Assembly (NCBI GenBank): GCA_963806535.1
Contig: CAWDYC010000003.1
Span: forward strand, 256,001-320,000
Reading direction: 5' to 3'
Length of the DNA: 64,000 nucleotides
DNA from: Candidatus Bathyarchaeota archaeon
Lineage (GTDB): Archaea > Thermoproteota > Bathyarchaeia > Bathyarchaeales > Bathycorpusculaceae
Position numbers and translations under genes: made by a program. Of this stretch, positions 12,937 to 53,357 are shown one piece after another (the first letter of the stretch is position 1; each line of letters opens with the position of its first letter). The notes under the pieces are model-generated. The model ran no database searches. It had not been told where the DNA came from and was given only the letters and a program-made list of their open reading frames with translations.

Positions 12937-14010
12937 ATGGATACAAATATGTATCCCCCAGAAAAATTGGAATCCATGAAAAACATGCCGAAAAGAAGCA
13001 AAGAAGATGGCAGTTACTGTTTAGGGATAGAATCTTCAGCAGACGATTTCGGTGTCGGTATAGCTACTTTCAATGGAGAAATTCTTGCCAACAAATACGA
13101 CAGCTACATACCAGTTGAAGGCGGAATTCACCCAAGAGAAGCAGCAAGACACCACTCGGAAGTTGCGGACAAAGTGCTAAAAGAAGCTCTGAGTTTTGCA
13201 GGTGTAAAACCAAACGACCTATCGGTTATAGCGTTTTCGCAAGGTCCAGGCTTAGGGCCTTCTTTACGTACGGGAGCCACTGTTGCCCGAGCTTTAGCTT
13301 CTTACCTAAACATCCCGCTTGTAGGAGTAAATCATTCTGTAGCGCATATTGAGATTGGAAAACTAAAAACTGGCGTTGTTGACCCTGTAACCCTTTATGT
13401 TTCAGGAGGCAACACCATGGTTACAGCTTTTGAAGCTGGACGATACAGAGTTTTCGGAGAAACCTTAGACATCGCCCTTGGAAATTGTCTTGACGTTTTC
13501 GCTCGCGAAGCAGGTTTAAAGCATCAAAAAGGTGTACCACTTGGGGCTGCCGTTGAGAGGTTAGCGGCTAAAGGAAAAAATCTGGTTTCTTTGCCTTATG
13601 TTGTTAAAGGTATGGATTTGTCTCTTAGCGGCTTGTTAACATCGGCGACAGCTCAATTGAAAAGTGGAAATTGCTGCTTAGAAGATTTGTGTTACAGTCT
13701 TCAGGAGCATGCTTTCTCAATGGTTACTGAAGTTACTGAGCGAGCGTTAGCACATACAGAAAAGAGAGAGGTTTTGCTAACAGGCGGCGTAGCAGCCAAC
13801 AAGAGATTACAAAATATGCTTCAAATAATCGCCGAAGAACATGATGCCCGTTTCAATGTGGTTCCACTTGAGTTTGCCACCGACAACGGCGCCATGATTG
13901 CCTGGACAGGCGTTTTAGCTTACAAACATGGTTTGGTTACACCGTTGGATACGAGTTATGTGAAGCTTCGGTGGCGAGTTGACAAGGTGGATGTGCCATG
14001 GATAAATTAG
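12937..14010 (+). CDS. kae1: KEOPS subunit Kae1 (t6A synthesis)
   Basis: GIESSAD, GGIHPREAA, HSVAH, YVSGGNT, DNGAMIA. Confidence 0.97.
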   Translation: MDTNMYPPEKLESMKNMPKRSKEDGSYCLGIESSADDFGVGIATFNGEILANKYDSYIPVEGGIHPREAARHHSEVADKVLKEALSFAGVKPNDLSVIAFSQGPGLGPSLRTGATVARALASYLNIPLVGVNHSVAHIEIGKLKTGVVDPVTLYVSGGNTMVTAFEAGRYRVFGETLDIALGNCLDVFAREAGLKHQKGVPLGAAVERLAAKGKNLVSLPYVVKGMDLSLSGLLTSATAQLKSGNCCLEDLCYSLQEHAFSMVTEVTERALAHTEKREVLLTGGVAANKRLQNMLQIIAEEHDARFNVVPLEFATDNGAMIAWTGVLAYKHGLVTPLDTSYVKLRWRVDKVDVPWIN

Positions 14011-14658
14011 CTGAACAAACGCTGTTCAAGAAGGGCGCCGAAGCCAGCCTATACCTTACAGATTGGCATGAAAGAAAAGTCATCGTAAAAGTGCGAATCC
14101 CAAAAAGATACCGTCCTGAGGCATTGGATAAGCAGATAAGAAGTTTCCGAACGGTACACGAACCGCAGTTAATGCATGAAGCTAAAGCCGCTGGGGTACC
14201 AACACCGCTGATATTCATGGTAAATGTTCCTCAAGCTTCAATCACCATGGAATATGTGGAAGGGCAGCAGATCAAGCAATTGCTAAACAAAGTTCCCAAA
14301 GATCAACGTCAGAAATTATGCCTAATAATCGGTGAGTTAATTGGCTAAACTTCACAGCCATGGCTTAATTCACGGCGACTTAACAACTTCAAACATGATT
14401 CTTAGCCCTGAAGGCAAAATTTTCTTTGTTGACTTTGGCTTAGGAGAAAGAAACATTGAAGTGGAGGCACAAGGAGTGGATTTACATTTGATGAAACGAG
14501 CGCTACAAAGTACACATTACCAGTTCTGGGAAGAATGCTTCAAGAACATCCTGTGTGGTTACTCATCGATTTTGGGACCTGAAGCAGCCGAAAATGTTTA
14601 CGAGAAAATAAAAGAGATAGAGAGGCGTGGCAGATACATTGAAGAAAGAAAACAATAA
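13998..14658 (+). CDS. bud32: KEOPS kinase Bud32 (frameshift near 14340)
   Basis: KGAEA, RTVHE, HGDLTTSN, DFGL. Confidence 0.93.
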
Positions 14659-15932: not shown

Positions 15933-16373
15933 ATGCCAAAGCAAGAAAAAGGAAAATCGCATTCGATGCGTCCAGTCAGCAGGCGTCCTCCAAGCTGGTG
16001 CAAATATCAGCCTGAAGAAGTAGAATCATTCATAATAAAATTGGCCAAAGAAGGCCATTCAATGAGCAGCATAGGCACCATCCTTAGGGATCAATACGCG
16101 ATTCCACTCGTGAAGCCTATAGTTGGTAAAAGCATAAGCGACGTTTTGAAAGAAGCAAACTTAGCATCAACCATGCCAGAAGACCTTTCAAACCTTATGA
16201 AGAAAGCACAAAGCCTCGCCGTTCACATGGACAAAAACAAAAAAGACCTACACAACAAACGCAACATGCAAATCATCGAAGCAAGAATCCACAAGCTCTC
16301 ACGGTACTATAAACGTGAAGGCGTCTTAGCTAAGAACTGGAAATACGAAGCAAAAATCGCTTCCGTAACCTAA
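15933..16373 (+). CDS. rps15: 30S ribosomal protein S15/S13e
   Basis: GKSHSMRP, IGTILRDQY, RIHKLSRYYK. Confidence 0.96.
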   Translation: MPKQEKGKSHSMRPVSRRPPSWCKYQPEEVESFIIKLAKEGHSMSSIGTILRDQYAIPLVKPIVGKSISDVLKEANLASTMPEDLSNLMKKAQSLAVHMDKNKKDLHNKRNMQIIEARIHKLSRYYKREGVLAKNWKYEAKIASVT

Positions 16374-16403: not shown

Positions 16404-17936
16404 TTGTTAGTTAATGCACCAGCTTTAAATCCAATTAGGCACCTTTTTAGCAAAAGAGTGAATTATGCATGGCTGCAGCAACAAGCATCTATTGAACGCT
16501 TCTTAACTTCAGCAGCAGAGGCATCGAAAGTTATTCTTGAAACAGTACAAAAAGATGGTTTTATTCATTGTTTTTCACATTTGGATGCTGATGGGGTTGC
16601 AGCTGCAGGCGTAATTGGAAAAGCACTCTTTCGACTTGATGCAAGGTTTAGAATTAGGATTACTCAGCAGCTTGACGAAAAAATCATCGACCAAATCGCC
16701 GTTGACAAACCGCAACTTTTGATTTTAACTGATTTTGGAAGCGGCTACCTCGACATTTTGAATGAAAAGATTCCGAATTTCAAAGTTTTAATTCTTGACC
16801 ACCACCAAATAAATGGCACCTCAAATAATCCAAATTTTGTTCAGGTAAACCCTCATATGTTCGGAATTGACGGAGCCAGTGATGTAAGCGGTTCAGGTGT
16901 CGCTTACTTTGTAGCTAAAGCCGTAAACAGAGCAAATGTTGATTTGGCTCCTGTTGCGTTGGTCGGCGCTTTAGGTGACATGCAGGATAAGTATGAACAG
17001 AGAAGCCTATGCTGCTTAAACGAAATCATCGTTAACGATGCTGTTGCTGCCGGCTTGATTAAAGTTGAAAAAGACCTGACTTTTTTCGGCAGAGAAACCA
17101 GACCAATTCATAGGACATTGTCAACTACGACTAACCCGTTTATTCCAGGCTTAAGTGGTGAAGAAGACAAAGCCTTAGCTTTCCTTGCAAGCCTTGACAT
17201 ACCCATCAAACAGGGTGAAAAGTGGCGGGCGCTCCGGGACTTAAACGAAGACGAAAAAAAGCGGCTTTGCTCTGCTTTGGCTGATCACTTGTTGTCTAAA
17301 GGACTGCACATGGAAGTTGAGAATCTTATTGGATACATTTACGTTTTAACCAAAGAAGAACCAAACACGGCACTTCGTGATGCAAGAGAATTTGCGGTTG
17401 TATTGAACTCAACGGGACGTATGGATAGGCCAAGCTTAGGCATTGCTATTTGCATGGGTGACCGCAAAGTTGCCCTTGACGAAGCAAACAAAATATTGGA
17501 AGATTACCGCAAAAACATAAACAAATATCTAAGCTGGGTAAACGAAAAACCCGAACGAATGCGAGAACTCCAAAACATCTATGTCATCTATGGAGAGAGC
17601 TTCATTAACGAAAAAATCGTTGGAACAGTCTCCTCAATAATCGTCTCAACCCTAGTTAACAATGAAAAACCACTCATAGCTTTCGCGAATGTTGAAAAAG
17701 AAAACGCGGCCAAATTCTCATCAAGAACAACAGAAGCAGCAATCCGCAAAGGAGTTAACCTAGGCGAAGTTATGCGATATGCTTCAGAAGCACACGGAGG
17801 CAAAGGCGGAGGACACAACATTGCAGCAGGTGCGCAGGTTCCCTTGGAAAAGATTGAAGAATTCGTTAAAACCGTAGATGAACTTGTCGGCAAACAGTTA
17901 AGAGGCGAGAAGGTTGGAAGCGAAAATAACGCTTGA
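16404..17936 (+). CDS. DHH-family RecJ-like nuclease
   Basis: HLDADG, TDFG, LDHH, GGGHNIAAG; conserved rps15-DHH-pcc1 context. Confidence 0.9.
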   Translation: MLVNAPALNPIRHLFSKRVNYAWLQQQASIERFLTSAAEASKVILETVQKDGFIHCFSHLDADGVAAAGVIGKALFRLDARFRIRITQQLDEKIIDQIAVDKPQLLILTDFGSGYLDILNEKIPNFKVLILDHHQINGTSNNPNFVQVNPHMFGIDGASDVSGSGVAYFVAKAVNRANVDLAPVALVGALGDMQDKYEQRSLCCLNEIIVNDAVAAGLIKVEKDLTFFGRETRPIHRTLSTTTNPFIPGLSGEEDKALAFLASLDIPIKQGEKWRALRDLNEDEKKRLCSALADHLLSKGLHMEVENLIGYIYVLTKEEPNTALRDAREFAVVLNSTGRMDRPSLGIAICMGDRKVALDEANKILEDYRKNINKYLSWVNEKPERMRELQNIYVIYGESFINEKIVGTVSSIIVSTLVNNEKPLIAFANVEKENAAKFSSRTTEAAIRKGVNLGEVMRYASEAHGGKGGGHNIAAGAQVPLEKIEEFVKTVDELVGKQLRGEKVGSENNA

Positions 17937-18162
17937 ATACAGCGACCAAAAAATGGCTAAAGCAGTTGCAAACGCGATTTCTCCAGATAACTTCAAAACG
18001 CCACCTGGACTTGAAGTTAAAACCGCAAAAGAAGATAAAAAAGTCGTGACTCAAATCCATTGTGAAGGCAAACTTGCTACGTTCACCGCCACTATAGATG
18101 ATTTACTTTTTAGCGCTTCAACGGCGGAAAAGACTCTTAACACAATAAGCAAAATGAAATAG
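17914..18162 (+). CDS. pcc1: KEOPS subunit Pcc1
   Basis: AISPDN, ATIDDLL, size and context. Confidence 0.8.
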   Translation: MEAKITLEYSDQKMAKAVANAISPDNFKTPPGLEVKTAKEDKKVVTQIHCEGKLATFTATIDDLLFSASTAEKTLNTISKMK

Positions 18163-18169
18163 CTAAACT

Positions 18170-18320
18170 GGAAAAGAAGAAGAAGTGTGCCCCCACAGCT
18201 TTTCTTCTTCTTTCTGAAGCAGAGAAGAAGTAGAACGCGGTGCTACTGCCAACTGTCCTTCTTCTTCTATCAAAGAAGAACAACACCCGATGCAACCACC
18301 AACCGTTGGCGTTCTTCCAG
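18170..18320. repeat. Array of three GAAGAA...TTCTTC hairpins (~50-nt period)
   Basis: Units about 18170-18218, 18221-18269, 18275-18317; first unit matches 48673-48717 inverted. Confidence 0.8.
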
Positions 18321-18521
18321 ATAGCATCTATTCAGGTCCTGATAAACCTCGGAACTAAGTTATGGGAAAAAAGAACTCAACAGTAACAAACCAAAGCTTA
18401 ATTACTACCAAAAAAAACACAAACTCTTATCGAACATTTGCTTTTAATCTTAAGCCCTAAATACATCGTTGATTACTGTAAAGTAAATAAATAAGGGATC
18501 ACAACATAAAAGAAACTTGAC

Positions 18522-20344
18522 TTGGTGAATTCAGTGAAACGAGTGCATGCAGTCTTCATGATAACAGTTTTCTTTTTACTAGTTTTCTTACCGATTGTTC
18601 TACCTTTTGGAACGGTTTCTGCCCAAAGCACCGGTTACAGCATTGACAAGGTTGACCACTCGATTGAGGTAATGTATTCTGGACAGGTTGCTGTTCAAGA
18701 TACAATTCACGTTTCTGGGCATGTTACAGACGGCTTTATGATTGGAGTACCAGCCCTGTATAGTACTGATGTCCTCAAAGTTGTAGCGTACGACTCAAAC
18801 AATTTGTACTCGGTAAATGTCGGAGTTCCATTGGGAGATCAGAGCGGATTTTACGGTGCCCAAGTAAACTTCAACGGTAACTCTCCTAGCGTTTTTACAG
18901 TCGCGTTTGTGCTTTCCAACAGTGTTATTACGGATTTAACTGGTGGCAATTATTCGCTTAATTTTCCTGCTTATCCAAGTCTCACCCAAAATGTCGCAAG
19001 CACAAATGTAACTTTAACTTTTCCAGCCACCCCTTACGAACATAACAATTACCAAAAATGATGGAGTAGTAAATGAAACAAACTATGTTACACAAAACTT
19101 AGCCGCATACACCTATTCCGCGGCCTCTGCAACCTTTCAGGTTTCTCCAGGAAGCCTACATTTAACGACCATAGACCAGTTAACTCGTCAAATAAATGTT
19201 GACCCAGCGGGTAAAGTTTCAGCTGTTGACAGTTACCATATGACAAACAATGGGGTGTTAGCAATTACTTCTTTTGTTTTCGGTTTACCAAGCAAGGCTA
19301 CAAGCATAGTTGTCAAGGATGAATTTGGAAGAGCATTAGCAACCAGTACCAGCAGCAGATACGAACCCCGATATTTTTTTAGCCAACACCACGCTGATAT
19401 CAATTTTATCAAGCTGGTCAATCTACATCTTTCACAATAAACTACAATTTACCAAGTGCAACCATTCAAGGTTCACAATTTATCCTTAAATAACTTCAAA
19501 CTTTTCCCATATTTCTCCTACTATGTTGAACAAGCAACTATCACATTCACTCCACCTGAAGGAGCAACCATAGTAACTCCTCAGCTTTCATCTCTTGACT
19601 CATCTTCAACAATAACAAGGAGCACCTTCCAAGATAGTCTCACAATAACTAGAGATGGCGTAAGCTACGTGGACTATAGCAGTCCCAGAAAGCAATACAG
19701 TTCAATTTTCCTACAATTATAATCCAGTTTGGGTTTCTTTCAGACCTACCTTTTGGGGTGCACTATTAGGAGCAATTGGATGCGTAGCTGCCGTTTTCTA
19801 TACAAGAAGAAAACCAGGCGAAAAAGAACCCGTAATGACTAAGACAGAAAGGTATGCTCCAAAACAGAGACCAAGCACACCCACACAACAGATGGAAGAA
19901 GTTCAGCCTGTAACAGGTCAAGCTATCACATCTGAAAGCCTCAGAGAATTCACCGATGCTTACGAAGAAAAGAAACAATTGAATGCTGAATTGAAGGCGA
20001 TGGATGCAAGAGCACAAAAAGGAAAGATTCCAAGACGACAATACAAGGTTCAACGCAGAGCCATTGAGATTCGATTAGAAACATTAGCCCGAAATATAAA
20101 CAAAATAAAAGATGCATTACGAAGCTCAAGCAATTACGCAGATTTGGTTAAACAGCTTGATTCTGCTGAAGAAGACCTATCAGACGCCGAAGAAAACATC
20201 AGAAAACTTGAAACAGGCCAAAGCACAGGCGAAATATCTATTGAAACTTACAAGAAAAACATCGGAGACTACCAGAAACGCAGAGACAAAGCCGAATCGA
20301 CAATAAACGGAATTCTACTTAGATTACGTGAAAAAACCCGTTAG
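18522..20344 (+). CDS. Type I membrane protein, ribophorin I-like architecture (several frameshifts)
   Basis: Signal peptide, two beta-rich repeats (DHSIEV.YSG / TRQINVD..G), TM near 19750-19800, cytosolic coiled coil. Confidence 0.55.
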
Positions 20345-21360: not shown

Positions 21361-21450
21361 CCATCTGACATAAGCCAAACGTACCCGCTCACTAAGAATT
21401 GTCAGTAAACATTATTCGTAATAATGTCTTTAAAGAGTTAGTTGGATAAA

Positions 21451-22187
21451 ATGGGTAAACCAAGTTTTTCGCGTAATGAACAGTTGTTAACGCTCATTTG
21501 CGTTGGATTTCTTGTTGCTTTTTTATTTGTCACTTTTTTCAGAGGGAGCTTTCACCTATTTGACGTGGAAGTTAACGATTGGATTTCTTCAAGTCAATCG
21601 AGCCCATTGACAATAATAAATGAGGGATTTGCAGTTGTTTTTGATACTACATCGCTAGTTGTATTATCCTTGATAATTGCCGGTTATTTCTTCTTGAAGA
21701 ATTGCAGAGCACAGAGCTTGTTTCTTCTTAGGTGTTATGGGCGGAGATGCCTTAATTATTTCAATTGTTAAGAATTTGGTTGAGTCGCCTAGACCATCTA
21801 ATGGATTGGTTTTCTCTTCAGGGTTTTCTTTTCCAAGTGGTCATACAGCCGGCAGCATCGTTTTTTGTGGGGCCTTGGCTTTTTTTGCATGGCAACATTG
21901 GAAGAATGTTAGAGCGCGAGCTTCGATTGGAATAGGAGCTGTTGCAGTTTCATCTGCAGTTGGTTTCAGTCGGATTTATTTGAACGTTCACTGGTTCAGT
22001 GATGTAATTGGGGCGGGCATGCTTGGGGTTTTCTGGCTATTTGGCGCGGTTTTAGTGTTCAATCTCCTGCAGGATAGGGGTGAAGTTTGAATCTGAAGGT
22101 TTCCGCAGGATTTCTTTGCCTCTTTTTGTTCTGGCGATTGTGGTTAGTGTATTTATTGTTGCGGGGACTTTGATTTTTGGCTTGTAA
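21451..22187 (+). CDS. PAP2-family phosphatase (frameshifted)
   Basis: K......RP, FPSGH, SRIYLNVHWFSD. Confidence 0.88.
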
Positions 22188-22274
22188 TTGATTAAAAGAT
22201 ATATCTTATTCAGACACATTTATATCCATAAAACCCCAGATAATCATTATAAACTAGAAAAAGAGAGAAAGTTT

Positions 22275-24388
22275 ATGGTAACAGTAAGAGACCCCGTATG
22301 CGGAATGGATGTAGACACAGAAACAGCGTTAAGCGCCAAAATAGGCGACCGAACCTACTACTTCTGCAGCCAACAATGCCTCGACGTCTACACCGCACCA
22401 GAACGTGAACTTAAAGCGATGCAACGAAGAGTTAGCTTCACTTTAGCAGGCGCAGTAGCAGCACTTGCCTTGAAAGTACTAACTCTGTTTGGACTAATCA
22501 CCGCAATAATGTATCTTGACGTTGTCGGGGGACTAAGAATTTACGACATAGCCATATTTATTGTGTCAACGCCTATTGTCTGGATAGCTGGCTACAGAAT
22601 ATACAAAGGAGCCTACCAGTCGCTCAGAAACCGCAATATCAACATGGATGTTCTCGTAACTGTCGGAGTTCTTGCAGGCTGGATATACGGAGTCATAAGC
22701 GTCTTTCTTCTGCCAACCACCGCTTCAACCAGGCACAGGTTACATGGAAGTAGCCATCGGCATCTTAGCCTTTGTCCTGCTCGGAAGATACATCGAAGAA
22801 TTAATTCGACGCCGATCAGCCGCTTCAATACGAAAACTGCTCGAACTTCAACCAACAATGGCTAGAGTCGTCAAAGATGGAAAAGAAACCGACATATCCA
22901 TAGATCAAGTCCAGGTAGGCGACATAGTTATTGTTAAAGCCAGGCGAAAAAATCCCCATCGACGGCACTGTAACTGCAGGTTACTCGTCGGTTGATGAGA
23001 AACTGCTCACAGGTGAAAGCATTCCTGTCGAGAAAACTGTCGGAAGCGAAGTAATCGGCGCCACAATCAACAAAACAGGGCTCTTAACTATCAAAGCCAC
23101 AAAAGTCAGCAGCGAAACTGCTCTGTCACAAATAGTTCATCTTGTTGAAGAAGCTCAAGCTTCGAGTGCTCCAGTCCAAAGATTTGCTGACCGAATTGTC
23201 AAGTGGTTTGTTCCAATTATTTTGTCGGTTGCAACGATTTCGTTTGTTTACTGGTTTGTGGCAAGTGGCAACTTTGCAACAGCATTTTTAGCGTTGCTGG
23301 CTGTGGTCTTAATTTCTTGCCCATGCGCTTTAGGCATAGCTACTCCGACAGCCATTCTTGCGGGTGTAGGAAAAGGTGCAGAATACGGCGTACTCCTTCG
23401 AAGTGGAGAATATGTTGAAAAAGCAAGAAAACTAACAACCGTCATATTCGACAAAACAGGCACTTTGACAAAGGGAGAACCAAGCGTAACCGACATCAAA
23501 ACCTACAGCAACTACACAGCACAAAGCGTATTGCAGTATGCAGGTGCAGCTGAGAAGGGCTCGGAGCATCCTTTGGCAGCAGCGATAGTTGCCAAAGCTG
23601 AAGCTGAAAAAGTTCCTATCCTTGAATCCGACAGTTTTGAGGCTTTACCCGGCAGAGGCGTCCAATGTACTGTCGAAGGAAAAGCTGTGCTGCTGGGAAA
23701 CCGCAAGTTGATGCAGGAAAAAAACGTCTCCATCAGCGAGTTAGAAGCTGACCTTACAGCGCTTGAAACACAAGGAAAAACCGTCATGATACTAGCCGTC
23801 GGTGGCCAAAGTGTCGGATTGATTGCAGCCATGGACACCGTAAAAGAGAGCGCCGCCGAAGCTGTTCAGCAATTGAAGGACATGAATTTGGAAGTTGCAA
23901 TGCTCACTGGGGACAACGAACGAACCGCCAACGCAATCGCCAACCAATTAGGCATTACAAAGGTTATTGCGAATGTTCTGCCATGGCAAAAATCAGAAGT
24001 CATCAAGCAACTGCAGAGTGAAGGAAAAATCGTTGCGATGGTTGGTGACGGAATAAACGATGCACCAGCGTTGGCTCAAGCCGACATTGGCATTGCAATT
24101 GGAAGCGGAACCGACATTGCCAAAGAAACAGGCGGTATAGTGCTCATAAAAGATGATTTGCGAGATGTGGCTTTAGGCGTTGAATTAAGCAAGAAGACAA
24201 TGCGTAAAATCGACACCAATCTGTTTTGGGCTTTTGCTTACAATGTGGTCATGATTCCAATCGCCGCCGCAGGCTTGCTAAATCCTATGTATGCGGCTGG
24301 AGCAATGGCAATAAGCAGCCTAACCGTGGTCAGCAATTCGGCGCTGCTGAAGTTGGCTAAGTTTAAATCAAACAAAGTAAATCAGTAA
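22275..24388 (+). CDS. copA: Cu(I) P1B-type ATPase with N-terminal YHS/TRASH domain (frameshifted)
   Basis: DPVCGM..YFCS, TGES, CPC, DKTGT, SEHP, GDGIND, YN, MxxSS. Confidence 0.93.
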
Positions 24389-48374: not shown

Positions 48375-48518
48375 TTTCACGGAATCAAAATGTTTCTAAA
48401 TGAGACAACATCTTTTTTTCACTTTCAGTCATGTCTCTGCTGTTCTAAACATTTGTTTCTTCACTTGATTCTTAAGCATCCTCGAACTATAGGGGCGAGT
48501 TCTAGAGGGATTTTACAG

Positions 48519-48993
48519 TTGACGAAAGGTAAGCCTTGGCCCATTGAAGACGAAAAACAGTTGACCGATTGGTTCAATTCGAGCACTAAAGATCTTCGAG
48601 TGCTTGCTTTCTCTTTTGATGGCAAATACAGCGAGAATGCTATTTATCAGAAACTTTTGGATTTAGGACTTATTCAGAAAGAAGAAGAAACTCGGGGGGA
48701 GCACACTTCTTCTTCTTCTACTACTACTACTGGTTTTACTTCTTCTAAGCTTGAGTTGCCGGAGGAGCTTCCGAGTGTTGAAGAGACGCTTAAAACTTGC
48801 GGCTGCATTAGAGGCATTGAAGGCCTCAGGACTCAAAAGAGACGATATTTTACGTTTGCGAGGCATTATTTCGGGTACCAAAATCTACCAGGAACTATTA
48901 GCAGACTACATTAACTATCGGGCGCTTGAAGCTGAACTTTTAGATTGGAGACGTAAATATGAGGAGCTTGCGAAGAAATCCACGGACAGTTGA
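48519..48993 (+). CDS. HTH plus coiled-coil protein, putative terminase small-subunit-like (frameshift near 48797)
   Basis: MTKGKPWPIEDEKQL Myb/GcrA-like HTH; EEE...SSSS linker; helical C-terminus; overlaps terL start. Confidence 0.65.
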
Positions 48994-50409
48994 GGCTAAA
49001 ACTTTTAGGCCTAATCGATTGTTCCTTGAACGCGATCGATTACGCAAAGACATTGAAACAGTCGAAATCGCTGCTAAACTGAGAACTAAGGCTGAAACAA
49101 GTGACCCTTACAAATTTTTGCTTGATTACTGCAAACTAAAACCCTACAAGCATACACTTGAAATTGCCAAATTGTATTTTCAACATCAATTCTTGGCTGT
49201 CTGTTTGCCTCGGCAAACGGGAAAGAGTACCACAATAGGTGCTTTGATTTTGCAGGATGCATGGGAACACAATAACCTTACATCGGACTTATCGGGCCTA
49301 GCTGGCGACAGACAAAACTAAATCTGCTCAGAGTGGCTAACTTTTGCCGTAATCTCCCCCGACAGGGAATGCATATTCAAAGAACAAGAATAACCCTCCA
49401 AAACGGCAGCGTGATCGAGGCTTTCCCCAACAACGCCGATACAATAAGGGGCAACACTTTTGACAGGCTCTGGTGGGACGAAACCAACTTCACACCCAAC
49501 GACGAAGACTTGTATGACGCCATCTTGTTTACAATGAGCACCAAAAAAGACGCCAAATTAATTGCAACTAGCACGCCTTTCAACACCGATTCCCTGTTTT
49601 GGAAAATGTGTAACCACGAAGACTTTTCTGATTTTGGACGCTACCACATCTCTTGGGAACAGGCACTTGAACCCAACGGTCCGTTAAGCACAACAATAAT
49701 TGAGAAGATTAGGAGGCAGTTTGGTAATGACTCAACTAGGTGGCGTCGTGAGATGGAGGCTGAATGGGCAGAAGACGAAGATGTGTGGCTTGCCCAAAGT
49801 CTCATCGTCAGTTGCATAGATAGCTCACTTTTGCCTTATGACTTCCAGACCCAACCGCCATTTGGCGAATTTTTCATTGGCGTCGATTTTGGGAAGGAAC
49901 GAGATTACAGCATTGTGGTAGTACTAGAAAAGATAGGTTTCGTTTTGCGAGTGGTTCATGTCCACCGTTTTCCATTGCATTCAGAGTACGCAAGTGTCAT
50001 TGGATACGTCAAGAGCTTACAGGACCGTTGGAACAGCATTCACTCGGTCTACGCAGACGTAACAGGAGTAGGAAACTATATTGTTGAGGATATGTTCCGC
50101 AGTGGCATTCCCAATGTAATTGGTACAAACTTTACAGTCCAGTCTAAAGAAGAAATGGCAAATATCCTCAGGGAAAAGATGCGAGCTGGTGAACTAAAAA
50201 TTCCATATATCCCTACCCGAAAAATAGGAGACATTGACCTTACAGTTGAGTTAAATGTTGAAAAATATGAGCTTATGAAAACAGGGCACTTAGGATTTAG
50301 TCATCCCGAAGGCACTCACGATGATGTATTTTGGAGTACAGCACTTGCGGTTCTAGGTTCGGTTAGAACACCCATGCCAGGTAAAGGTGTTGGTTTTGTT
50401 TCGCATTAG
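48959..50409 (+). CDS. Terminase large-subunit-like ATPase-nuclease (frameshift near 49280)
   Basis: PRQTGKST, IRG, LWWDE, STP, GVDFG, DVTGVG, HDD. Confidence 0.9.
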
Positions 50410-50594: not shown

Positions 50595-50862
50595 TTACTC
50601 GTATGCTTTTTCACGCGTCGAAATGGAGTAAATAACTATTGTTTGATCTGTTGACAGCTCAAATAGTATTCTTACAGTTTTTCCTATTCTGATACGATAA
50701 TGGTTTTGATATCCATGCAGTTTCTTGATGTCTATTCTTGTTGAAAGACCCTCATCCTCTAAAGTTTTTAGAGCTATCATTATCCTATCCTGATTTTCTT
50801 TCGGAAAATTTTTTGAACTGCTTTTTAGCTTTGCTTTCTACAAAAACCAAATACTTGGGCAA
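50595..50862 (-). CDS. RelE/ParE-family toxin (frameshifted)
   Basis: IKKLHG...YRIRIG..RILF...REKAY. Confidence 0.88.
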
Positions 50863-50865
50863 ATG

Positions 50866-51093
50866 TTAGTTCCCTTTCGTCAATTCAGTCAAAGGTTCGA
50901 GGTGCAGCTTTTTGCTTCTCTTTGCAGTTTCATATTCTTCAATCGCTTTAACATCTTCTTTAGAGGGTTCTTCAAACCCGATTAACCTTTCTTCAACCAG
51001 CTCATTTAACCCTTGTACTTTCTTATTTAATTCCAACAGCAAACTCCGAATCTCTTTAAGTTCAGCTTCAGATGTCATATTTCTCAAAATCAA
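50866..51093 (-). CDS. Putative antitoxin
   Basis: Small acidic coiled-coil ORF directly upstream of the toxin. Confidence 0.7.
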   Translation of the reverse strand: MILRNMTSEAELKEIRSLLLELNKKVQGLNELVEERLIGFEEPSKEDVKAIEEYETAKRSKKLHLEPLTELTKGN

Positions 51094-52680: not shown

Positions 52681-53046
52681 CTATAGGTCGTTAAGAATTT
52701 TTTTGAATTGCTGCTGCAAATTTGGTAAATCGGTTATTGCCGTGTTCCACATAGAAGGCCAATCTGCACTAAAGTATTCATGAGTGAGTTCATGTCTCAT
52801 TCCGCATAGTTTTTCATAAGGTATATGATAGTAATAGAATAGCTCCTTCACTTTTTTGTTTTTTGAAACTGCCCAGACAGCTTCAGAAATATCTCGCAAA
52901 ACATCCTTCAATGCATGCATTCTTATTTTTTGTTGAATAAACGCCTCATACGTTAATCCATATGTTATTTCTTTTAGGTCATCGATGTACTCTAGAATTT
53001 CTTTAACGTATAATTTAGGATCTCTGCGTTCCAAATTTTTCGTCAT
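52681..53046 (-). CDS. HEPN RNase toxin (DUF86/HepT)
   Basis: RxxxxH motif MRHELTHEY. Confidence 0.88.
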   Translation of the reverse strand: MTKNLERRDPKLYVKEILEYIDDLKEITYGLTYEAFIQQKIRMHALKDVLRDISEAVWAVSKNKKVKELFYYYHIPYEKLCGMRHELTHEYFSADWPSMWNTAITDLPNLQQQFKKILNDL

Positions 53047-53357
53047 ACGTTAACAGCTTCTTTTAAAACCTGATCTCTTATGTGCTTATTCAGAAATTCT
53101 TTTGAAATTACATCTACTTTCAGATGTAGCTTTCGCTTAAGATACTGTTTTAAGTCATAAATCGTGAAAAGGCTAACAGCTGCCGAATACGTAACCAAAA
53201 TATCCAAGTCACTCTCCTCCGTTTGTTCTTTTCTGGCAAAGGAACCAAAAATATCAATGGTTTCAATGCTGAACCTTTTCTTCAAAGTAGGCTTCAGTGC
53301 TTCAAGTTGCAATTTGACTTCTTCCAGTGACTTTACTTCAAAGGTCTTTTGAACCAA
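53043..53357 (-). CDS. Minimal nucleotidyltransferase antitoxin (MntA-like)
   Basis: FGSFAR.EQ...SDLDILV. Confidence 0.9.
   Translation of the reverse strand: MVQKTFEVKSLEEVKLQLEALKPTLKKRFSIETIDIFGSFARKEQTEESDLDILVTYSAAVSLFTIYDLKQYLKRKLHLKVDVISKEFLNKHIRDQVLKEAVNV

Follow-up and report, generated by a model that had tools for sequence, protein, structure and literature searches.

The stretch analysed here (the window) comprises 64,000 nucleotides, positions 256001-320000 of contig C3 of G000, the source genome of this study (2.95 Mb in 12 contigs, about 41% G+C). Among housekeeping genes identified by a Pfam scan of the window, a trio of hairpins, their 5′ arms of GAAGAA type and their 3′ arms of TTCTTC type, occupies 18171-18317. 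This block starts 11 nt after the stop codon of a Pcc1 gene and ends about 205 nt before the next open reading frame (ORF), at 18522. A related hairpin lies about 30 kb away, inside a gene that resembles those for small terminase subunits (the terS-like gene). We consider the block likely to be a non-coding copy of a dispersed, lineage-restricted three-hairpin repeat, related to a selected stem-loop in viral terS-like genes. The element is oriented along the minus strand of the window, which gives the unit order A-B-C. The units and the gene that carries the related hairpin are as follows, where R2 denotes a covariance model built from gene hairpins only.

18173..18317, minus strand: full copy of a repeat of about 145 nt with three hairpin modules (nhmmer with an 11-copy profile, E 9.5e-42 over profile positions 2-144; also aligned to the other copies)
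18272..18317, minus strand: unit A, with a GAAGAAC...GTTCTTC-type stem that is degenerate in the window copy (7 perfect pairs)
18222..18269, minus strand: unit B, with 8 perfect pairs, extendable with mismatches (R2 match of 31.7 bits)
18171..18215, minus strand: unit C, with a perfect 12-bp stem and a 17-nt loop (R2 score 31.6-32.0 bits)
48676..48720, plus strand: hairpin in the linker-coding part of the terS-like gene, sequence KEEEETRGEHTSSSS, the top R2 match in the genome (42.2 bits, E 5.9e-7)
48390..48993, plus strand: terS-like gene with a broken frame (ORF 48390-48914 resumes in another frame as 48751-48993)
48959..50409, plus strand: gene of the terminase large subunit (TerL), split into 48959-49321 and 49333-50409

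The three units are joined by linkers of 5-8 nt, and the first-pass annotation, which had noticed the trio from the letters of the DNA, described them fairly as having a constant stem type and a variable loop. Unit C has a AAAGAAGAAGAA-type stem with GGGGCACAC at the end of the loop, and matches the hairpin of the terS-like gene. Unit B has a AGAAGAAGGA/TCCTACTTCT-type stem with AGTTGGCAGTAGCACC in its loop. Intact versions of unit A occur elsewhere, for example at C4:315281-315326, where R2 matches it. As RNA, the minus strand of the block folds with -63.6 kcal/mol (z -4.12, with none of 200 shuffles as good) and the plus strand with -50.6 kcal/mol (z -3.51, better than all 200 shuffles). In the minimum-energy fold only unit C appears as it had earlier been drawn. 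The arms of A and B are interchangeable, so this fold pairs the two across units, the 3′ arm of A with the 5′ arm of B. The CTGGAA/TTCCAG pair that had been suggested to close the whole block (18170-18175 and 18315-18320) is present and paired in both folds, but is not kept in other copies. Similarly, the TTTATC box described upstream does exist on the minus strand, at about 18341-18346, but the flank that holds it is unconserved among copies, and we rejected this TATA-like box as part of the element. The layout is not that of a CRISPR array, as no constant repeat alternates with spacers and different stem types are joined by short linkers (this comparison covered the array itself). A scan for terminators of bacterial type found none at 17800-18700, a result of little weight for an archaeon.

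A search of G000 with the 11-copy profile returned 17 copies of the repeat at E ≤ 6e-19, 12 of them full and 5 partial (A+B, B+C and similar combinations), and all 17 share the A-B-C order. Two extra matches cover unit C only, one at C7:78848 and the other in the terS-like gene. Of these 19 matches, 18 (the 17 arrays and C7:78848) are flanked by long ORFs arranged convergently, in tandem or divergently, and they occur in either orientation; the remaining match is that inside the terS-like gene. The family accounts for about 22 of the 157 perfect hairpins with stems of at least 10 bp in the genome, among which no other family is conspicuous. The outer GAAGAA/TTCTTC complementarity of the element is simply that of the unit stems. 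Two other readings of individual copies were rejected: C7:78848 is intergenic, with the 3′ arm from a B unit ahead of it, and is not a second terS paralogue; the paired partial copies on C6 enclose a Hjc-like gene and no transposase, and are not the ends of a larger element. The first-pass annotation had seen a special tie between the block and the gene 30 kb away. This did not survive the search, as the block is one of 17 dispersed copies, accompanied by solo units. That annotation had also named a dispersed repeat unrelated to terS as one outcome that would overturn it; the copies are indeed many, but they are related in sequence to the terS hairpins.

The likeness that had first drawn attention to the block was reproduced exactly. 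The reverse complement of 18174-18218 agrees with 48673-48717 at all 18 + 17 flanking nucleotides and at 5 of the 10 central ones (40 of 45 in total). Matches to this 45-nt pattern, with an N10 centre and at most 3 mismatches allowed, number 9 in the genome compared to none for a reversed control. R2 gave 48 matches in G000 at E ≤ 0.1, both strands counted, with the gene hairpin at the top; the others fall in array loci or at three further solo loci (C4:309222, C9:113434 and C5:220807-220931). At C4:315281-315425 all three units are matched. Each unit also has its own relatives among gene hairpins: the stem type of unit A is that of gene hairpin L102, the loop motif of unit B is common to the viral gene hairpins L202 and L204 (14 of 16 positions), and unit C is closest to the gene hairpin type of G009. 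In G009 a single nucleotide separates the gene hairpin from an array unit, and the two have a lineage-specific change in common; in G044, a unit that lies outside terS-like matches agrees with the G009 gene hairpin at all of 41 nt. The question posed in the first-pass annotation, whether the second and third hairpins match terS genes, thus has a positive answer, in genes of other virus clades; these counterparts are not paralogues within G000, which has one terS-like gene. Judged by sequence and structure, the match between 18174-18218 and 48673-48717 is a true homology within one hairpin family, and does not single these loci out as partners.

A comparison of linker DNA across homologues had been proposed in the first-pass annotation as a check. 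It showed that the hairpin of the terS-like gene is a nucleic-acid element in its own right, kept by compensatory change across the gene family. In all 10 of the first 10 homologues read, the linker DNA forms a hairpin, with stems that differ between genes. Both flanking protein motifs are in frame at 102 of the 144 loci examined. In 81 of these 102 genes the best perfect linker stem is at least 9 bp long, and in 68 at least 11 bp, while control windows of the same length reach 9 bp in 2 of 102 cases downstream and in none of 102 upstream. The linker peptides swap as reverse-complement codon pairs (EEE/SSS, QQQ/CCC, VVV/TTT, DDD/SSS), and the 61 distinct gene hairpins have 30 different 9-nt stem cores. 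In a covariation analysis of 55 hairpins, which had been pre-selected for stems of at least 9 bp, 83.9% of cells were paired compared to 60.1% after shuffling, and 147 cells showed double changes compared to 55.8 (0 of 500 shuffles as high in either case). Sliding the partners by 1-2 columns lowered pairing to about 40%. RNAalifold predicted 8 pairs, all 8 with compensatory changes.

Stem types track gene clades: proteins with the motif YQKLLDLG have EEE/SSS stems, those with RQKLIK have QQQ/CCC and those with RLGLEVV have VVV/TTT. Perfect stems of 11-13 bp are retained down to about 40% protein identity. The five most divergent terS-like genes (L154, L157, L161, L165 and L168) have no hairpin and have shorter linkers. 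The linker is also where such structures concentrate, as 43 of 45 three-periodic hairpins in the viral loci (535 kb) are at the linker, one per locus, and 41 of 42 in the genomic loci (481 kb) are the linker hairpin. Stem mismatches at loci L054-L242 (1055 pairs) comprised 9 A.C and 1 G.T on the sense strand. An A.C mismatch on the sense strand corresponds to a G.T wobble on the antisense strand, and the bias, in small numbers, points weakly to folding of the antisense strand. Taken together, we regard the gene hairpin as very probably a selected cis-element. Unique, conserved in structure and located in the gene that precedes TerL, it occupies the classical place of a packaging (pac) site, and for this reason we put it forward, tentatively, as a candidate viral pac site.

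One further observation concerns this hairpin as a target for insertion sequences (IS). At L064:1660-2866, in G005, an IS110-family element of about 1.2 kb interrupts the terS-linker hairpin exactly within its 5′ arm; the protein that the element encodes is 342 aa long and has the domains DEDD_Tnp_IS110 and Transposase_20. The same junction recurs at L169:1782, L234:5633 and L239:6159, and two of the four loci are viral contigs that end there. Since the insertion falls exactly in the 5′ arm at four loci, the hairpin is a specific target of this IS.

The carrier gene overlaps and precedes that of TerL in the window, where TerL is recognized by Pfam (Terminase_6N 6e-8, Terminase_6C 1.3e-6). Relatives of the terS-like gene were found in 21 of 47 genomes of the genus (at most 15 matches in any one), and amounted to 80 loci in the species-genome collection and 64 in IMG/VR. 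Nearly all of the 80 are in metagenome-assembled genomes of Candidatus Bathyarchaeota/Bathyarchaeia. Intact terS-like proteins are about 150 aa long and, in relatives and viral contigs, are directly followed by an intact TerL of 482 aa, after which an ABC-ATPase/GNAT protein often comes next; the gene row in one viral contig is tail-tube, gp10-like, terS-like, TerL and ABC-ATPase. The AlphaFold model of the terS-like protein (mean predicted local distance difference test score, pLDDT, 73.8) has a predicted three-helix, helix-turn-helix-like N-terminal domain, presumably DNA-binding, a disordered segment (residues 55-73), then a helix (82-96) and, at the C terminus, a long helix (103-152). The residues encoded by the hairpin, 55-73, are the disordered part of the model (pLDDT <50).

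In the window itself both terminase frames are broken. Several other window genes also look split, so these breaks may not be true decay, and assembly frameshift errors are as likely a cause. The genes that appear to be divided into adjacent ORFs lie at 13998-14658, 21442-22090, 22188-24388 and 48390-50409, and comprise the two halves of a Bud32-like kinase, PAP2, a YHS domain plus P-type ATPase, the terS-like gene and TerL. A protein of about 480 aa follows TerL in viral or proviral loci (L078:4778-6217, L194:7871-9313, L217:8020-9480); it is an ABC-type ATPase with a weak GNAT match and matches phrog_293 at 2e-33. This ABC-ATPase/GNAT gene is not present after TerL in the window or in G014, where only the terS-like and TerL genes stand between housekeeping genes. 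Just downstream of the terminase remnant, the window has two pairs that resemble toxin-antitoxin systems, a ParE-like ORF with a small partner (50595-51093) and HepT with an MNT nucleotidyltransferase (52681-53357).

Comparison with relatives showed that the repeat is both restricted in its distribution and polymorphic in its insertion. The whole element was matched in 5 of 24 other genomes of the genus, clearly in G009 (13 matches) and G013 (7), and in none of 16 genomes from other families of the order. Weaker loci in relatives carry the same kinds of hairpin in other combinations, and solo units and intergenic mosaic arrays of 2-7 units with mixed stems were read in three other genomes. The pattern GAACAACAAC-N8-30-GTTGTTGTTC occurs in 30 of 63 genus genomes and GAAGAAGAAG-N8-30-CTTCTTCTTC in 19 of 63; control patterns gave 0 matches everywhere, compared to up to 60 matches in one genome, counts that include gene copies and come from related genomes that are not independent. 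Matches to R2 at E ≤ 0.001 were obtained in 6 of 121 genomes of the class, all 6 from the order of G000 and 5 from its family.

Two spacers illustrate the polymorphism. The first is that of the block, the upstream neighbourhood of which, from the Pfam scan, is as follows.

12937-14010: Kae1
15933-16373: ribosomal protein S15
16404-17936: DHH/DHHA1 RecJ-like protein
17914-18162: Pcc1

The spacer after Pcc1 lacks the element in G021 (about 45 nt) and in G003 (about 100 nt), and holds a rearranged hairpin array in G013, the closest relative. At the second locus, C4:153338-153478, the spacers of G003 and G042 are 51-54 nt long and lack the element, and G013 has units A and B. Misassembly of the block is unlikely, as the same element is found at orthologous sites in G013. 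Both spacers are hot spots for small insertions. Other inserts, unrelated to the repeat, were seen after Pcc1 in G004 and G042 (L025, L026) and at the second locus in G004 and G019 (L244, L246); these are 130-400 nt long and some are common to more than one genome. Downstream of Pcc1 in G045 (L028), a run of about 80 T follows a conserved spacer motif, possibly as an assembly artefact.

What would account for these observations? We propose that the modules are members of one family of 35-48-nt hairpins, in which (GAA)n, (CAA)n and similar stems pair with their complements, and which occurs in this family of Bathyarchaeia in two settings. In intergenic DNA they form solo units and mosaic arrays, much like bacterial repetitive extragenic palindromes (REPs), their clusters (bacterial interspersed mosaic elements, BIMEs) or BOX elements. 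In the terS-like genes of head-tailed viruses and proviruses there is a single structure-selected stem-loop in the segment for the disordered linker. The hairpin may act as an extruded DNA structure, or possibly as RNA, read by a structure-specific factor, and in the virus it would most likely mark the point at which the small terminase initiates packaging. The chromosomal units would descend from viral gene hairpins and would then have spread and rearranged as non-autonomous DNA, with composite arrays spreading as units. Most chromosomal copies are probably neutral or selfish; a terminase-related function for the chromosomal arrays appears unlikely to us.

The proposed direction, from gene to chromosome, draws on the form of the stems. 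Stems built of trinucleotide repeats, together with loops whose length sets the 3′ arm in the Ser/Cys/Thr frame, would make sense only under coding constraint. At gene loci, 83 of 86 hairpins have the gene-like 'S' arm phase; so do 13 of 18 family hairpins in G000 and, with 9 duplicate rows dropped, 27 of 38 intergenic hairpins from other genomes, although these counts overstate the case because family copies are not independent. Furthermore, single arrays mix several stem types, whereas stem types in genes follow gene clades. The coding-like stems and phase, together with this contrast between clade-tracking genes and mixed arrays, favour descent from viral gene hairpins.

Several results weigh against this account, beside the lack of independence just mentioned. 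The direction itself is something that we infer, and units A and B of G000 do not keep the gene-like arm phase. No target-site duplication was seen at the ends of 10 aligned full copies or in the comparison of filled with empty sites, so the case for calling the repeat mobile is that of polymorphism and copy number alone. No mobilizing enzyme was found in a search that covered the IS200-like and IS110 families, and IS110 is absent from G000. The IS200-like elements were rejected as mobilizers, since their GC-rich end hairpins are unrelated to the family. The terS-like protein has no sequence match in Pfam, PHROG or PDB, and Foldseek returned nothing at E ≤ 0.001, giving only local matches to GcrA/Myb DNA-binding domains above E 0.1. 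As no TerS family is matched by sequence, we infer the identity 'TerS' only from gene position and order and from architecture. The pre-selection of the covariation set leaves the stem count in 102 genes as the unselected evidence for a conserved structure. As an observation on the IS200-like elements, G000 has three copies outside the window (C3:355938-356300, C4:112617-112979 and C8:17991-18353), 550 bp long and at least 99.6% identical, which encode only a Y1 transposase and have GC-rich subterminal hairpins. A partial hairpin array, at C4:111782, lies some 700 nt away from one of these copies.

Two other explanations take the same homology in different directions. The block may be a chromosomal array of terminase recognition sites. 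These would be pseudo-pac or cutting sites through which host DNA is driven into capsids, or else decoys for the titration of viral TerS. Several virus clades have gene hairpins homologous to the units of the block, at least 5 stem types that are each clade-specific in genes are combined in one array of G010, and gene and array units are near-identical within G009 and within G000; TerS recognizes pac sites in headful packagers, according to the available text of PMC13595956. We nevertheless judge such an array improbable, given that the resident terS-like and TerL frames are broken in the window, that copies decay into partial units as neutral DNA does, and that placement is generically intergenic. 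Hairpins and terS-like genes also fail to go together, since G053 has 60 hairpin matches and no terS-like match and another genome has 13 terS-like and 2 hairpin matches (gene copies being included in the pattern counts). Alternatively, the family could be a purely selfish palindrome, once inserted in frame in the terS linker and kept there by turnover or gene conversion from chromosomal copies, with no viral role. The hairpin segment does behave as an indel, given the divergent genes that lack it and have shorter linkers; it encodes a disordered linker; hairpins abound in genomes without a terS-like match; and an IS110-family element uses the hairpin as its target. These points keep a selfish origin in consideration, but we hold it to be doubtful. 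Only 1 of 19 copies in G000 is genic, and that one is in the terS-like gene. Stem types that track gene clades look like vertical descent with compensation and not like repeated overwriting, perfect 11-13-bp stems persist to the same low protein identities, and it is difficult to account for three-periodic stems in non-coding copies unless these stems arose in coding sequence.

The two remaining explanations concern products of the block. That it works at the RNA level, as a structured small RNA, as an antisense or decoy against viral terS mRNA or as a REP-like element for transcript ends or stability, seems to us quite unlikely. Both strands fold well, every unit has a U-rich arm 3′ of the stem on either strand, some copies are just past stop codons (as in the window, 11 nt after that of Pcc1), and the A.C mismatches on the sense strand (9 compared to 1 G.T) are what an antisense fold would tolerate. 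All the same, the stems are almost purely Watson-Crick with few wobble pairs, the promoter flank is unconserved among copies and copies are also found in divergent promoter regions. Rfam 15 gave no match at the block, a tRNA being its sole match in the window, and the best score within 18000-18500 was 18.4 bits compared to the gathering threshold of 55.8. A search for sequencing runs listed none of RNA, and the 18 DNA runs listed each shared at most 0.07 of the sampled words, a result without bearing on transcription. The first-pass annotation had also pointed to a 54-codon ORF on the minus strand (18163-18327). This ORF exists and is open in the window, with unit C read in a gene-like frame (QKEEE..HTSSS), which might suggest a small gene that is a relic or paralogue of the terS linker. 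However, its frame is shifted or stopped by indels or stop codons in at least 6 of the 12 full copies, no Pfam family matches it, GAA/TTC repeats are free of stops in that frame by composition alone, and homology to the terS-like gene ends about 5 nt outside the stem. A real gene here is therefore extremely improbable. Our preferred reading remains that of a non-coding repeat of viral gene ancestry.

How does this repeat compare to known systems? REPs and BIMEs are found in enterobacteria and pseudomonads, where they are mobilized by RAYT transposases, and REPs serve some bacterial IS elements as targets. The Bathyarchaeia hairpins resemble them as short, imperfect extragenic palindromes in tens of copies, single or in mosaic clusters, which are restricted to a lineage and are landing sites for IS. 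They differ in having no conserved GTAG-type head, the units starting instead with A/GAAG-type repeats, and in that the hairpins beside the three Y1_Tnp genes are GC-rich and unrelated to the family. Trinucleotide-repeat stems, an archaeal host and the same hairpin inside a viral gene are further differences. The BOX elements of Streptococcus pneumoniae have the modular order boxA-boxB-boxC and are likewise foldable intergenic repeats of several units, variable in unit number and without a transposase of their own. There is, however, no sequence relation, and BOX modules are not all hairpins of one family. To our knowledge, BOX has no counterpart in a viral gene. Sulfolobus SM elements, which are archaeal miniature inverted-repeat transposable elements (MITEs), are also small non-autonomous repeats in intergenic DNA; unlike MITEs, the present repeat has no terminal inverted repeat with target duplication, and no parent IS was found among the IS200-like and IS110 elements checked.

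Other parallels concern the gene hairpin. Rickettsia palindromic elements are selfish palindromes inserted in frame in genes, and the terS-like hairpin is similar in being a palindromic repeat in frame in a protein gene, where it adds a tolerated peptide. It differs in being confined to one gene family, always at the same site and with clade-specific compensated stems, while its other copies are intergenic; in-frame insertion in many unrelated genes was not seen, with 1 of 19 copies in G000 genic (a count that leaves aside the three solo R2 loci). The pac sites of P22 and SPP1 lie within terS, and the present hairpin resembles such sites of headful phages as a unique cis-element inside the gene preceding TerL in head-tailed viruses. 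Unlike these, it is a perfect 11-13-bp stem-loop with compensatory codon pairs in a disordered linker, its carrier protein matches no TerS family by sequence, and its pac function is putative. Pseudo-pac sites are known from chromosomes, and phage-inducible chromosomal islands mimic pac or cos. The arrays are comparable as chromosomal sequence that resembles a candidate viral packaging signal, but they are short and multi-copy, place such candidate signals of several virus clades in tandem, have no island genes and are known from sequence alone. The mechanism of headful packaging by TerS, pac and TerL is described in the available text of PMC13595956. Literature searches found no published description of hairpins of this kind, and the available text of a paper on Bathyarchaeia viruses (PMC10848311), leaving its supplements aside, has no occurrence of the word 'hairpin'.

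The comparisons above indicate a new REP/BIME-like hairpin repeat family of Bathyarchaeia, which by its sequences has common ancestry with a covarying stem-loop of viral terS-like genes. For an uncultivated group of archaeal viruses this provides a concrete candidate packaging signal, a stem-loop written in the codons of a disordered linker, the arms of which pair E codons with those for S, Q with C and V with T. For the hosts it adds an archaeal repeat family that behaves like bacterial REP/BIME or BOX elements. The link at the sequence level between host repeats and a viral cis-element could reveal a new virus-host conflict or a route of gene transfer. It is conceivable, though we think it improbable, that chromosomes of this family gather tandem packaging-signal hairpins copied from several clades of head-tailed viruses, which incoming terminases would read. 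If arrays are indeed read by terminases, they would be decoys that misdirect packaging, as a defence, or entry points for host DNA and hence hot spots of transduction. The type of hairpin could also serve as a sequence tag with which to assign uncultivated viruses to their hosts.

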